Both the position numbers and the translations under genes were made by a program. A model generated the notes under the pieces. The model did no database searches. It saw only the letters and a list, made by a program, of their open reading frames with translations, and was not told the DNA's origin. Below, piece by piece: positions 21,446 through 61,843 of a stretch of DNA of 64,000 nucleotides (positions within the stretch are counted from its first letter, which is position 1; every line of letters begins with the position of its first letter). The stretch comes from an uncultured Eubacteriales bacterium (GTDB taxonomy: Bacteria > Acidobacteriota > Aminicenantia > Aminicenantales > Aminicenantaceae): NCBI GenBank assembly GCA_964400735.1, contig CAYNVQ010000003.1, forward strand, positions 1-64,000, in the 5' to 3' direction.

Positions 21446-21554
21446 GTCCGTTTCCCTTCCTTTATCTTAAAGGCTGTGATGGCTGGTGTCAATCGAGCGG
21501 AAAAAACGGAAGCGTCTCTCCGACATCCCGATCTTAGGGCAGCAAGAAGCACTG

Positions 21555-21835
21555 ATTTGTCAGCCCGAGGATTTTCCCCATCGACCTTTTGGAGGGAGAA
21601 TTGTTTTCAATTCCTGCGAGTAAATGCTCGCTTTCTGCCACCAAAGCTTGATTTCGTGCTCGTACCCGCTCTCTGACTTTCCTTCTCGGACTTCGTCCTG
21701 CATCCAAAGGGACATATCCCCTAGGATCCGCCCATTGATTTTTTCAGAATCGATCGAAATTCTCTTATTCCTCGGCTCACTTTCCTCGTCGAAGAATCAT
21801 GCCCTCTTGCTTTGAATGGCTTCCTCATCTGCTTA
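21555..21835. repeat. Degenerate, rearranged copy of the intergenic repeat family (see 38158-38346)
   Basis: Shares the blocks gtcagcccg..gattttcccca, ctgccaccaaagcttgatttcgtgctcgtacccgctc, cttattcctcggctcactttcc and ctttgaatggcttcct with copies A and B. Confidence 0.5.
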
Positions 21836-21900
21836 TATCACTGTTGTTGCAGCTTTAATAAGGCTGAAGATGCTTCTGGATAAAGAGGAAGAGAAGAGGA

Positions 21901-30164: not shown

Positions 30165-30260
30165 CTGGTTTTTTTGCCTGCCAGCAAAGCTTGCTTTCAC
30201 GTTCGCTTCGCTCTCTACCTCCCCTTCTCGGTTTCGCCCTGAGACCGAGGGATCATATCC
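30165..30260. repeat. Partial copy of the intergenic repeat family (core gcctgccagcaaagcttgctttcacg)
   Basis: Contains ctggtttttttgcctgccagcaaagcttgctttc, which matches the core of copies A and B. Confidence 0.5.
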
Positions 30261-30591
30261 CCCTGGAATTCCCAACAGAGTTCCTCCAGATGTTGTTGTC
30301 CTTCTCGGCACCTGGTCAATCCGGGAACGTCCCAATCAAAGACTCTATAATTTATCATTGATAAAAAGCAAATATTGAAATAGTGGGGATTTCCAAATGG
30401 GACGCCCCCTCAAGTTATCCTCCCTGGACGTTTCAGGAAGGCGGGGTTAGGTTGGATCGGGGCCTTCCATACCTCCCCGGCATTTTTCTGCACCTTTATT
30501 TGCATTTGATTTTCCCTCACTTCGGGACAAAATCCAGCATTGCAAAAGGGGACTTCCACGTGCATAAAAGAATCTTTCGGCAAATTCGGTG

Positions 30592-38077: not shown

Positions 38078-38157
38078 TTTTTTCTCCTCAAATAAAAATG
38101 TATGATATGATATCTTGTGTTTGAAGTCAACCGCCATGGTGATGAGGCAAGCATCCT

Positions 38158-38346
38158 GATTTCCGTGACAAAAAAACAGTCAGACAGAATGGTCCGTCAG
38201 CCCGCTGGTTTTCCCCAGCGAGGAAAACCAGCTTATTCCTCGGCTCACTCTCCAACCTGCCAGTAAAGCTTGCTTTCCATGCCCGCTCGCCTCCGGATGG
38301 CTCCCTAACCATCCTGCCTGACTTAAAAAGAAATCGTCACGGAAAT
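38158..38346. repeat. Intergenic repeat element copy A, about 189 bp, with 11-bp terminal inverted repeats (atttccgtgac ... gtcacggaaat)
   Basis: Shares extended identity with 43538-43680. Contains an internal 10-bp hairpin, ctggttttcc/ggaaaaccag. On the minus orientation it ends in a U-run 60-80 nt before the rpsT start. Confidence 0.7.
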
Positions 38347-38495
38347 TAGGATGCTTAAGGCGATGAGAAGGTATCCCTGGATCCGAAGAGCGTTGGTTTC
38401 GGTGCTTTTTTGTAAAGGGAAGAGGCCGACAGGACTTGTGAGTGATATCGATGGCTGAAGCGAACAAGAGGACCACCTGATTTCAAGGAGGAAAG

Positions 38496-41478: not shown

Positions 41479-42581
41479 CACAGATAGCCTTCCAGAATAA
41501 AATCTTCTCCGAGCTGATGGCATTTTGTTTTTTTTGCCCGAAGGGCGCTGGTGATGGAGGAAAACCCTTGGCCCTCAAAAAATGTGAGGGCTTTCGCTCC
41601 TCCAATCAGCTTGGAAGAAAGGGTGATATAAATTTTATCGATGAGTTTCTGTTCCAGAAGGGAGGTAAGAAGCTGGCTCCCTCCTTCCACCATAATGCTG
41701 GAGATTTCTTTTTCCCCCATCCAGATGAGGACTTTATTCAGGTCCACCCTTCCCTCCGGGCTTTCGGGAAGCGAGATGACCTGCATGCCCCTTTTCTTCA
41801 GGGCCTCTGCCTTTTTCGATGTGCTCGGTTGACAAGTGAAGACGAGAATTTTGCCCCTTTCCAGGGTTTCAAGAATTTTTGCCCCAAAGGGGAACCGAAG
41901 ATGGGAATCGATGATGACGCGTAGAATCGTCTTTTTTTTCCACAGTGGGTGTCTAATCGTTAATCGGGGGTCGTCCTGCAGGATGGTGTTTATTCCCACC
42001 ATGATGGATTCGTGCTCACCACGGAGAAGGTGAACATATTGTCTTGTGGGTTTAGAGGTTATCCAGTGGGATTGATGGCTCCCAGTGGCTATTTTGCCAT
42101 CCAGGCTCGCCGCTATCTTGGCGGTTAGGAAGGGAATTCTGGAACGGATGTATTTATTATAAACTTCGTTAAGAGATGAATTTTTCTCCTGAAGGAGACC
42201 GATGGATACTTCTATTCCAGCCTCTCTCATTTTCTGGATCCCCTTTTGGCAGACGATGGGATTAGGATCGTAAGATGATATGACAGCTCGTTTTATCCTC
42301 GAACGGATGAGATGATCCACACAGGGAGGGGTTCTTCCCCAATGGACACAGGGTTCAAGCGTGATGTAAACCGTGCTGTTCTGTGCCCGTGAGCCTGCCC
42401 TTTGCAGAGCTATGGCTTCAGCGTGGGGTTTGCCCGGTTTTTTGTGGTAACCGGTTCCGATAATCACTCCTTTTTTGACGACAACGGCTCCCACATAGGG
42501 ATTCGGATTAGCCCAGCCTTTGGCTTTTTCGGCAAGGCTGTAGGCCATTTCGAGGAAGGCCATGTCTTGGTTATCGCTCAT
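41478..42581 (-). CDS. ribD: Bifunctional riboflavin deaminase/reductase RibD
   Basis: 367 aa. CMP/dCMP deaminase zinc motif HAE...PCxxC. C-terminal reductase domain. Confidence 0.9.
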   Translation of the reverse strand: MSDNQDMAFLEMAYSLAEKAKGWANPNPYVGAVVVKKGVIIGTGYHKKPGKPHAEAIALQRAGSRAQNSTVYITLEPCVHWGRTPPCVDHLIRSRIKRAVISSYDPNPIVCQKGIQKMREAGIEVSIGLLQEKNSSLNEVYNKYIRSRIPFLTAKIAASLDGKIATGSHQSHWITSKPTRQYVHLLRGEHESIMVGINTILQDDPRLTIRHPLWKKKTILRVIIDSHLRFPFGAKILETLERGKILVFTCQPSTSKKAEALKKRGMQVISLPESPEGRVDLNKVLIWMGEKEISSIMVEGGSQLLTSLLEQKLIDKIYITLSSKLIGGAKALTFFEGQGFSSITSALRAKKTKCHQLGEDFILEGYL

Positions 42582-43471
42582 GAAAGTAAGGCGTTGACGA
42601 ATTCGGGGGGAGAAAAATCCAAAAGATCTTTTTCGTCTTCTCCTACCCCGATATATTTTATGGGGAGATCAAGCTCGTCCATGATGCCAATTGCACTTCC
42701 CCCTCTTGCTGTACCATCCAGCTTGGTGAGAAAAATGCCGGTAAGGCCTGAAAATTTTAAAAATTCCCTTGCCTGAATCAAAGCATTTTGTCCGATTGAG
42801 GCGTCCATTACCAGCAGAATTTCTTGGGGGGCTCCTTCTATTTCCCTAGAAATCACCCTCTTTATTTTTTCCAGCTCATTCATCAGATTGACATTGGTGT
42901 GAATTCTGCCTGCCGTATCCACGAGAAGATAGTCGTAGTCCTTTGCCTTGAGGGATTGAATGGCATCATAGACCACAGAGGCTGGATCGGCGCCATATTG
43001 TCCCTTGATGACCGGGATATTTAGCCTTTTGCCCCATATCGAAAGCTGTTCTTGTGCTGCTGCCCTGAAGGTGTCCGCGGCGACCATCAGGACCTCATTT
43101 CCTTCTTCTTTAAACCTAAAAGCAAGCTTAGCGAGTGACGTGGTTTTGCCTCCGCCGTTTACCCCCGCCATCATGACGACCCAAGGAGGTTGTCGAAAAT
43201 TGTGGGTATTGGGAGGACGAGAAAGGATGTTGGAAATTTCTTTTTCCAAATATTTTTTCACGGTCGAGAAGGAATCAGTCTTTTTGCTCTCTTTACGAAT
43301 GGAATCGATAATTTTTTCGCTCGTTTGCACCCCCACATCGGCAAGAATCAGCGATTCAACCAATTCGTCAAGGATGTCGTCCCTTGTTTTTCCGGATTTG
43401 AGCAGCTCGTCGAACCTCGCTTTCAGACTCGATCTTGTGCGGCCGAGCGTTTTTTTCAGGTCTTTGATCAT
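42578..43471 (-). CDS. ftsY: Signal recognition particle receptor FtsY
   Basis: Starts at the internal Met, MIKDLKK. NG domain with [10 protein letters not shown]. The 80-aa N-terminal extension in the ORF track reads through repeat copy B and is not part of the gene. Confidence 0.8.
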
Positions 43472-43537
43472 GGCCCAACCATTATATTTTCCGTCCTTTT
43501 TAATGTCAATCGACGGGAAAGACGATTGAGAACTCTC

Positions 43538-43680
43538 ATTTCTGTGACAAAGAAACAGTCGGGCAGGCTTATTCTTCGGATCGATCTCTTCAACCTGCCA
43601 GTAAAGCTTGCTTTCTATGCCCGCTCGGCTTGAATGGCCTCCTAACCAGTCGGAAGGACTTAAAAAAGAACCCTCAAGGT
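43538..43680. repeat. Intergenic repeat element copy B
   Basis: Contains atttctgtgacaaagaaacagtc, cttattcttcgg, cctgccagtaaagcttgctttctatgcccgctcgg and ggcctcctaacca. Collinear with copy A. Sits directly 5' of ftsY. Confidence 0.7.
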
Positions 43681-43844
43681 AATAAGGATACCCTGAAAAG
43701 CGAGGAAGCATCCCCGTTTTGGAGAGATTAATATCAATATTATTAGGTTGACAAGAGGAGGGCTAAATTCTAAAATCATTCCCCTTTGCCCAATGCTCGA
43801 TTATCCACCGAATAGGGTGAGTTTAAACGACTAAAAGGAAGACT

Positions 43845-61594: not shown

Positions 61595-61627
61595 ATGCCA
61601 GGCATAAAGTCAATCATGATGGGTCAT

Positions 61628-61722
61628 GATAGGGACGTTCCATTCGGGGATATCCTATCCTGTAAGCATAATGTTATTATCGGCAGAATGGATAGGGTGT
61701 CCCCGAATGGAACGTCCCTATC
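61628..61722. repeat. Long near-perfect hairpin: 23-bp perfect outer stem plus an inner imperfect stem, about 33 bp in total, around a roughly 29-nt AT-rich loop
   Basis: gatagggacgttccattcgggga (61628-61650) is the exact reverse complement of 61700-61722. Inner pairing cctatcc/ggatagg. Located in the tolQ / trkH divergent intergenic region. Confidence 0.7.
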
Positions 61723-61843
61723 AACCGTCGATTGACAAAGAAGGAGAGAAGTAATAGATTGATGGAAATATCCTTGGAGGGATGGATGCCTGGACCTAGA
61801 GGAGTGCCCCATCAAAAGCGATAGAAGGTTCCAACCGGCCCAA

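Follow-up and report, generated by a model that had tools for sequence, protein, structure and literature searches.

What is the repeated sequence that lies immediately upstream of rpsT in an uncultured bacterium of the Aminicenantaceae, and why should it stand just there? The locus belongs to a 64,000-nt stretch of DNA (GenBank assembly GCA_964400735.1, contig CAYNVQ010000003.1, positions 1 to 64,000 of the forward strand), hereafter the window, in which a preliminary description had marked an element at 38158-38346 and three further copies of it. Two origins had been proposed there, namely a miniature inverted-repeat transposable element (MITE) that hitch-hikes into promoter regions, and a family of paralogous small RNAs (sRNAs) or leader attenuators. 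According to the analysis presented here, it is very probable that the repeat is a MITE family, which has its termini in common with an insertion sequence (IS) encoding a UPF0236 transposase and which is inserted 16 bp upstream of promoters. MITEs and promoter-targeting ISs are both already known, and it is this MITE family that is new.

Termini, target duplications and the partner insertion sequence

The copy upstream of rpsT (copy A), which is the sole structurally intact copy within the window, extends from 38147 to 38358 (212 bp) and carries a 9-bp duplication on both flanks, GGTGATGAG at 38138-38146 and GGCGATGAG at 38359-38367, equal at 8 of the 9 positions. Its ends form an inverted repeat of 21 nt with 95% complementarity (38149-38169 / 38336-38356), or of 23 nt counting the tip dinucleotides, so that the left terminal inverted repeat (TIR), GCAAGCATCCTGATTTCCGTGAC, occupies 38147-38169 on the plus strand and the right TIR (reverse complement TTAAGCATCCTAATTTCCGTGAC) occupies 38336-38358 on the minus strand. 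The 11-bp arms from which an element of about 189 bp had been deduced do exist as the inner arms of copy A (ATTTCCGTGAC at 38159-38169 and GTCACGGAAAT at 38336-38346), but the start had been set one base early and the size was too small, the element being 212 bp long with 23-nt repeats. Positions 3-23 of the left repeat show zero mismatches to the pattern AAGCATCCTNATTTCCGTGAC, and a search with the 21-mer of copy A, allowing up to three mismatches, recovered only the two arms in the window and nothing in 100 window shuffles. As well, the perfect internal hairpin reported earlier was recovered in the A-type core, with an 11-bp stem at 38204-38232 (GCTGGTTTTCC CCAGCGA GGAAAACCAGC).

A metagenome scan with the terminus AGCATCCTNATTTCCGTGA returned at least 120 stretches, and the element counts given below come from the matches listed. 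Among these matches, which are from sediment-type metagenomes, 65 inverted terminus pairs delimit elements of 62-338 bp, falling into size classes of 62-90, 160-171 (the commonest), 195-216 (that of copy A) and 229-338 bp. The edges of the elements lie two bases beyond the 21-mer, as G[G/T]AAGCATCC...GGATGCTT[A/C]C, with 9-bp direct repeats outside them, and the 23-nt terminal repeat of the family reads G[G/T]AAGCATCCTTATTTCCGTGA[T/C]. In 34 of the 59 non-redundant elements the two 9-bp copies agree at 8 or more positions, for instance CCCGCATTC (L010), GGATACGAT (L017) and GTTAGACAA (L020). Solo termini were also present, 25 of the 58 being cut by a contig or locus end. Several subfamilies can be distinguished by internal sequence, which have unrelated cores and the same termini. 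The subfamily of copy A has 14 members including A itself, 195-213 bp in length, and copy A is 86-87% identical to L006 and L023 over about 150 nt. A coding origin of the core was rejected, because variants are separated by indels whose length is not divisible by three, such as the 13-nt indel among the A-type variants. Positions 421-2769 of L081, considered as a 2.3-kb element, contain no transposase and show five mismatches, and were taken as two unrelated hits.

In addition to the metagenomes, genomes were scanned with the conserved core 21-mer, one genome for each species, and seven loci were found in three genomes, namely a complete Candidatus Aminicenantes metagenome-assembled genome (MAG) and two MAGs labelled 'uncultured Eubacteriales'. 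Compared with copy A, these copies show 80-86% identity across 130-218 nt, and L003 a shorter match of 95%, and their flanks are unrelated; all of them are intergenic and they occur in both orientations relative to their neighbours, while the L006 copy has the same long inverted repeat as copy A. In a Logan contig identical to the window the break falls inside copy A, as is usual for repeats in assemblies, and the family accounts for assembly breaks at this sequence in these genomes. The MITE was absent from the plasmid collection.

The autonomous partner was identified at L055 (91-1475), where a 1385-bp IS possesses both repeats, a single 423-aa open reading frame (ORF) and a perfect 9-bp duplication, CAGGTATGA. 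The left repeat of copy A agrees with the right inverted repeat (IRR) of this IS at 19/20 aligned positions. The L055 transposase has 210 homologues at E <= 1e-20, and nine more homologue loci (L129-L137) present the same architecture and the same IS tips as L055, with a left repeat of GGAAGCATC[C/T][C/T]CAAAACCGTGATGG and a right repeat that begins with GT. The transposases of these ISs are 422-426 aa long, and the 9-bp duplications of the further copies are clear at L130 and L135 and approximate at L137. MITEs and IS have nothing in common except the 23-nt termini. Most MITEs carry right-repeat sequence at both ends, and a few (L025, L054, L093 and L120) combine a left-type with a right-type end.

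The L055 transposase matches the Pfam model UPF0236 well above its cut-off (E = 3.7e-24; 85.7 vs 24.3), and among NCBIfam models it matches ISKra4 (2.5e-50) and ISLre2 (1.8e-45), while its identity to the annotated ISKra4/ISKpn19 transposases of the plasmid collection is 24-26%. Judged from its sequence, the partner transposase is a member of the prokaryotic Mutator-like DDE group (UPF0236) and a distant relative of ISKra4 and ISLre2. An IS66-family origin, suggested by GTAA tips and 8-9-bp repeats, was dropped, the actual partner being a UPF0236 transposase.

Two of the IS loci show further features. A 1541-nt contig (L136) begins, within positions 1-100, with a right repeat, 9 bp and a left repeat, followed by the transposase gene, and this junction represents either a tandem pair or a circular transposition intermediate. 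As well, L132 shares the IS copy and right flank of L130, L131 and L133 and has a different left flank in one sample, which suggests an IS-mediated rearrangement or an assembly chimera.

The elements are short and non-coding, bear terminal inverted repeats and a duplication of fixed length, occur at many unrelated loci and have their termini in common with an autonomous element, and thus present each of the sequence-level features of a MITE. Palindromic, intergenic, multi-copy sequences would also be expected of REP/BIME-like or IS200/IS605-type palindromes moved by a tyrosine (HUH) transposase, or of simple repeats generated by recombination. However, these elements are far longer than REPs, and their 9-bp duplications and 23-nt inverted termini are held in common with a DDE-transposase IS, whereas HUH-type elements are not known to have duplications or inverted termini. 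An origin of this kind is therefore extremely improbable.

Position relative to promoter-like sites

The 59 non-redundant elements were read outward from their tips, giving 115 flanks. TTG stands exactly 16 bp from the tip in 31 of them, compared with 2.5 per offset as background (binomial P = 4e-25), and in 17 flanks the hexamer at this offset agrees with TTGACA at 5/6 positions or more (background 0.66, P = 4e-19). The 31 flanks were picked for TTG alone, without selection for a -10 signal, and the -10 hexamer 17 nt further on nevertheless follows TAnnnT, with T in 25/31, A in 24/31 and T in 23/31 at positions 1, 2 and 6, respectively. TTG at 15-17 bp occurs on one side in 35 of the 59 elements and on both sides in one only. 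Moreover, the two tips differ at position 2, where T is found at the promoter-proximal tip in 28/34 and G at the distal tip in 27/34. In the IS copies the promoter lies on the IRR side, and TTGACT or TTGAAA stands 16 bp from their GT-tipped right repeat (L129, L134/L135 and L137). Outward ORFs were counted in 24/28 promoter-proximal flanks vs 18/28 of those compared with them, which by this crude ORF criterion is not a significant difference (P = 0.12).

In the window, copies A, B and C each have a sigma-70-type promoter-like site between the element and the gene, pointing away from the element. The site of rpsT (38102-38130, minus strand) consists of TTGACT (38130-38125), 17 nt and TATCAT, with a gap of 16 bp to the tip of copy A at 38147. 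That of ftsY (43481-43509, minus strand) matches the consensus at 12/12 positions (TTGACA, 17 nt, TATAAT), again with 16 bp to the tip of copy B at 43526, while the site of the secreted-protein gene (21464-21492, minus strand; TTGACA, 17 nt, TAAGAT) lies 15 bp from the tip of copy C at 21508. The earlier statement that all four copies lie 5' of minus-strand genes holds for rpsT, ftsY, the secreted-protein gene and a 192-aa gene, which had been read as encoding a membrane protein, and the pattern arises because targeted integration leaves that footprint.

The fixed 16-bp distance indicates that the promoter association results from targeting by the transposase and not from passive hitch-hiking. 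Of the proposal of a MITE that hitch-hikes into promoter regions, the MITE part is retained, in view of the repeats, the duplications, the size classes and the IS, and the hitch-hiking part is replaced by targeting at a fixed 16 bp. The transposase, acting in trans, would bind the repeats of the MITE via its N-terminal domain, as published properties of the family suggest, and insertion would then occur 16 bp upstream of the -35 box of a sigma-70/sigma-A promoter, with duplication of 9 bp of target and usually with the GT-tipped end towards the promoter. A circular form, in which the abutted repeats lie 6-10 bp apart, would be the probable intermediate by analogy with the family, and the junction at L136 fits such a form, or tandem copies. 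The promoter and the gene would be left intact by the insertion, and copies could consequently build up just 5' of gene starts.

Several observations weigh against a promoter-targeted MITE family. In about 40% of the elements TTG is missing at 15-17 bp on both sides, and the promoter sites throughout are consensus matches and not mapped transcription starts. The loci retrieved, which had been selected for carrying the terminus, included no empty site. The window contains no transposase gene in its 64 kb, and the partner transposase misses both NCBIfam cut-offs (171.8 bits vs 205 for ISKra4, and 155.9 vs 200 for ISLre2), which places it in the superfamily and leaves its family ambiguous. As to the copies in the window, copy A has tip dinucleotides GC and TT where the family has GG and GT, and its promoter stands at the apparent GG-type end, which is the minority orientation, while fragment D shows neither recognisable TIRs nor a promoter at the expected distance.

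The same position bears on the second of the two origins proposed at the outset, namely paralogous sRNAs or leader attenuators whose minus-strand transcripts would end with a hairpin and a U-run before each gene. Copy A does fold well (z = -3.8 on the plus strand and -4.9 on the minus strand), it contains a terminator-like hairpin and T-run on the minus strand (38198-38183), and the pairing of its internal hairpin is kept across the subfamily through a few paired changes seen by eye (CTGG../..CCAG vs GTGG../..CCAC). The good folding, however, is explained by the inverted repeats. No relevant Rfam match was obtained at the gathering threshold or with E up to 10, and RNAalifold on 18 aligned A-type copies gave a weak consensus of -11.75 kcal/mol with a covariation term of +0.3, i.e. 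no net covariation. The internal hairpin (38204-38232) is absent from the RNAalifold consensus, its paired changes having been judged by eye without a count, and the sole stem with several paired changes in the A-type alignment is the inner palindrome. Moreover, the core has no constant orientation relative to flanking genes and promoters, unrelated cores are found with the same termini, and RNA genes would not be expected to have 9-bp duplications or an IS partner. With a predicted promoter standing between element and gene in A, B and C, these elements fall outside the leader, and a leader attenuator is excluded at these three copies. Nor is the 'stem plus U-run' that had been assigned to the end of every copy a homologous feature common to all. 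In view of these results, the sRNA or leader origin was abandoned as very improbable.

A MITE by origin may also have been put to use afterwards, the hairpin and U-run of the A-type core serving as an insulator or terminator upstream of promoters, or as another kind of modulator. On the minus strand of copy A, an inner stem, AGTCAGGCAG.../...CTGTCTGACT, with GTTTTTTTG after it, is directed towards the rpsT promoter, and the core is 77-87% conserved between copies of different assemblies. UP elements and activator sites lie upstream of about -52, and it is the DNA upstream of about -52 that an insertion replaces. However, the promoter is at the right (GT-tip) end in about 7/9 A-type copies and at the left in copy A (by eye, without a formal count), so the strand with the U-run usually does not face the promoter. 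Conservation of the core is what any recently amplified MITE would show, no net covariation was detected, and subfamilies with other cores insert at the same distance. Such a use of the A-type core is considered unlikely, and a MITE family directed to promoters by its transposase, irrespective of its core, is the reading followed below.

Copies and remnants in the window

The four copies had been credited with long collinear blocks, which is correct for A and B. These are 79% identical over 124 nt (E = 1e-23) and 84% over another 32 nt. By contrast, the blocks that C and D have in common with A are just 22-34 nt long (E about 5e-4); C also matches a 200-nt metagenome variant. Copies B and C are old, decayed insertions and D is a fragment. 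Copy A itself is probably not a very recent insertion, given its altered tip dinucleotides and the one mismatch in its duplication.

Copy B (43526-43695) belongs to the A subfamily in a decayed state and lacks the hairpin module, and its left and right TIRs agree with the consensus at 16/21 and 15/23 positions, respectively. The 377-aa ORF call at 42578-43711, which runs through this MITE, is an over-extension. The earlier view of the ORFs over the element, and of the ftsY N-terminal extension, as spurious was borne out, and several spurious ORFs and a false ftsY N-terminus can be removed from the annotation. The predicted -10 box of ftsY ends 8 nt ahead of the ATG at 43472, which suggests that the predicted mRNA is leaderless or nearly so.

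At 43704-43731, 8 nt past copy B, lies a possible 28-bp remnant of a second element, read by eye and tentative, in which a tip of left-repeat type is joined to a decayed tip of IRR type. The former, GGAAGCATCCCC, equals the first 12 nt of the left repeat of the IS, and the latter, GTTTTGGAGAGATTAA, is similar to an L134-type right repeat that has decayed. The remnant stands 16 bp ahead of the -35 box of recJ (TTGACA at 43748), and it may be a collapsed second insertion aimed at this divergent promoter.

Copy C (21508-21877) is a decayed long variant with degenerate TIRs, GGAAGCGTC... and ...GATGCTTCT. Its right TIR and its boundary at 21877 were set by eye, reading insertions in the right repeat, while the automated scan chose a different, weaker position. 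A possible decayed duplication, GGAAAAAAC / GGATAAAGA, equal at 6/9 positions, was likewise found by eye. The ends of copy C (21551-21584 and 21757-21834) resemble the 200-nt metagenome variant, with identities of 88% across 34 nt and about 80% across 70 nt, and its middle is an inserted module of about 172 nt, which we call module X. Fragment D (30165-30262) consists of a CCTGCCAGCAAAGCTTGCTTTC block and the same module.

Module X, which occupies 21585-21756 in copy C and 30178-30262 in fragment D, is recurrent in long MITE variants, with a length of about 100-170 nt, and its first 35 nt or so are like the A-type core block CCTGCCAGTAAAGCTTGCTTTCC. Elsewhere it was found at L003 4233-4337, L100 3421-3494, L071 1-76 and L110 7075-7131. 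In such places it is contained in TIR-bounded elements, and in L100 and L071 no more than about 160 nt separate it from a terminal repeat, on the side of the element body. The module may be a nested element or a variable cassette.

Just outside copy A and upstream of dtd, a terminator-like hairpin, CCGAAGAGCGTTGGTTTCGG then TGCTTTTTTG, was noted at 38383-38411 on the plus strand, where there is no plus-strand gene upstream of it.

Relation to known elements and other palindromic repeats

Insertion at a set distance from promoters has been described for TnGBS, the ISLre2 family and several ISs of the ISKra4 group, all of which integrate at sites 15-17 bp ahead of a sigma-A -35 box (Guerillot et al. 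2014, PMC3942029; Brochet et al. 2009, cited within it, is a further source on the TnGBS/ISLre2 systems). The insertion peak of those elements is 16 bp from the right repeat, their direct repeats are 8-9 bp long, their orientation is set by the asymmetry between both repeats, and a transposase signature, a conserved Asp between domains N1 and N2, was tied to promoter targeting (PMC3942029). No MITEs are described in that study. The present family is similar in its UPF0236 transposase, with best scores to the ISKra4 and ISLre2 models, in its 9-bp repeats, in its 16-bp peak on the right-repeat side and in an orientation tied to repeat asymmetry. Among the properties expected of elements mobilised by ISKra4/ISLre2-type transposases, direct repeats of 8-9 bp and a position 13-17 bp upstream of the -35 box were both found, while the transposase scored below the family-model cut-offs. 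Unlike those systems, the elements in the window are without a transposase and their cores are unrelated to the IS, the partner transposase is only 24-26% identical to those of ISKra4/ISKpn19 and lies below both cut-offs, and the two ends of most MITEs are asymmetric at essentially a single tip position, G vs T.

With classical bacterial MITEs, such as Correia/NEMIS in Neisseria, RUP in Streptococcus pneumoniae, ERIC/IRU in enterobacteria and Nezha in cyanobacteria, the family has much in common, being small, non-coding, multi-copy and intergenic, with inverted repeats, target duplications, long hairpins, size variants and decayed copies. The targets of those families are short motifs, e.g., TA, whereas this family is fixed relative to -35 boxes, makes a 9-bp duplication and has a Mutator-like partner. 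Pack-MULEs and other non-autonomous Mutator-like elements of plants (mentioned in PMC3942029) are similar in belonging to the Mutator superfamily, in having only the termini in common with an autonomous element, in their 9-bp duplications and in their preference for the 5' ends of genes. However, Pack-MULEs occur in eukaryotes, reach a much greater size and contain fragments of host genes. For the MITE cores no origin in a host gene was found, although no systematic search for one was made.

The promoter-targeted insertion known for TnGBS, ISLre2 and ISKra4 has, on the present evidence, passed to tiny non-autonomous derivatives, which have proliferated in uncultured sediment bacteria. As the tip lies 16 bp from a -35 box, each copy would point to a likely promoter, and the copies would together provide a free promoter prediction set for organisms that cannot be grown, as well as a natural experiment on the consequences of replacing the DNA upstream of about -52. 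In the literature, which is incompletely searchable, we found no MITEs of this transposase group, none inheriting such targeting and none in Aminicenantes. It might be speculated, with low confidence, that this is the first described MITE family to inherit sigma-A-promoter targeting from a Mutator-like transposase, that its hundreds of copies are natural tags 16 bp upstream of active promoters in uncultured sediment bacteria, and that some copies were perhaps co-opted to insulate or tune promoters by replacing the UP element or activator region.

Finally, two other palindromic repeats were noted in the window. A 65-nt palindrome at 117-181, between two tRNA genes, has perfect 15-nt arms (GGTTCCTGTCCATCT ... 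AGATGGACAGGAACC), with a solo arm at 335-349. A 77-79% identical module is nested in A-type MITEs, replacing part of the core (L093 6775-6840, L051 10463-10528 and L075 8316-8381), and the palindrome looks like a second small palindromic repeat family. The other, at 61627-61723, is a 34-nt inverted repeat (TGATAGGGACGTTCCATTCGGGGATATCCTATCC ...) with 94% complementarity and a 29-nt spacer, which ends 8 bp ahead of TTGACA, 17 nt and TAGATT (seen by eye, outside the promoter scan); its spacer holds TGTAAGCAT, which is reminiscent of a MITE tip.

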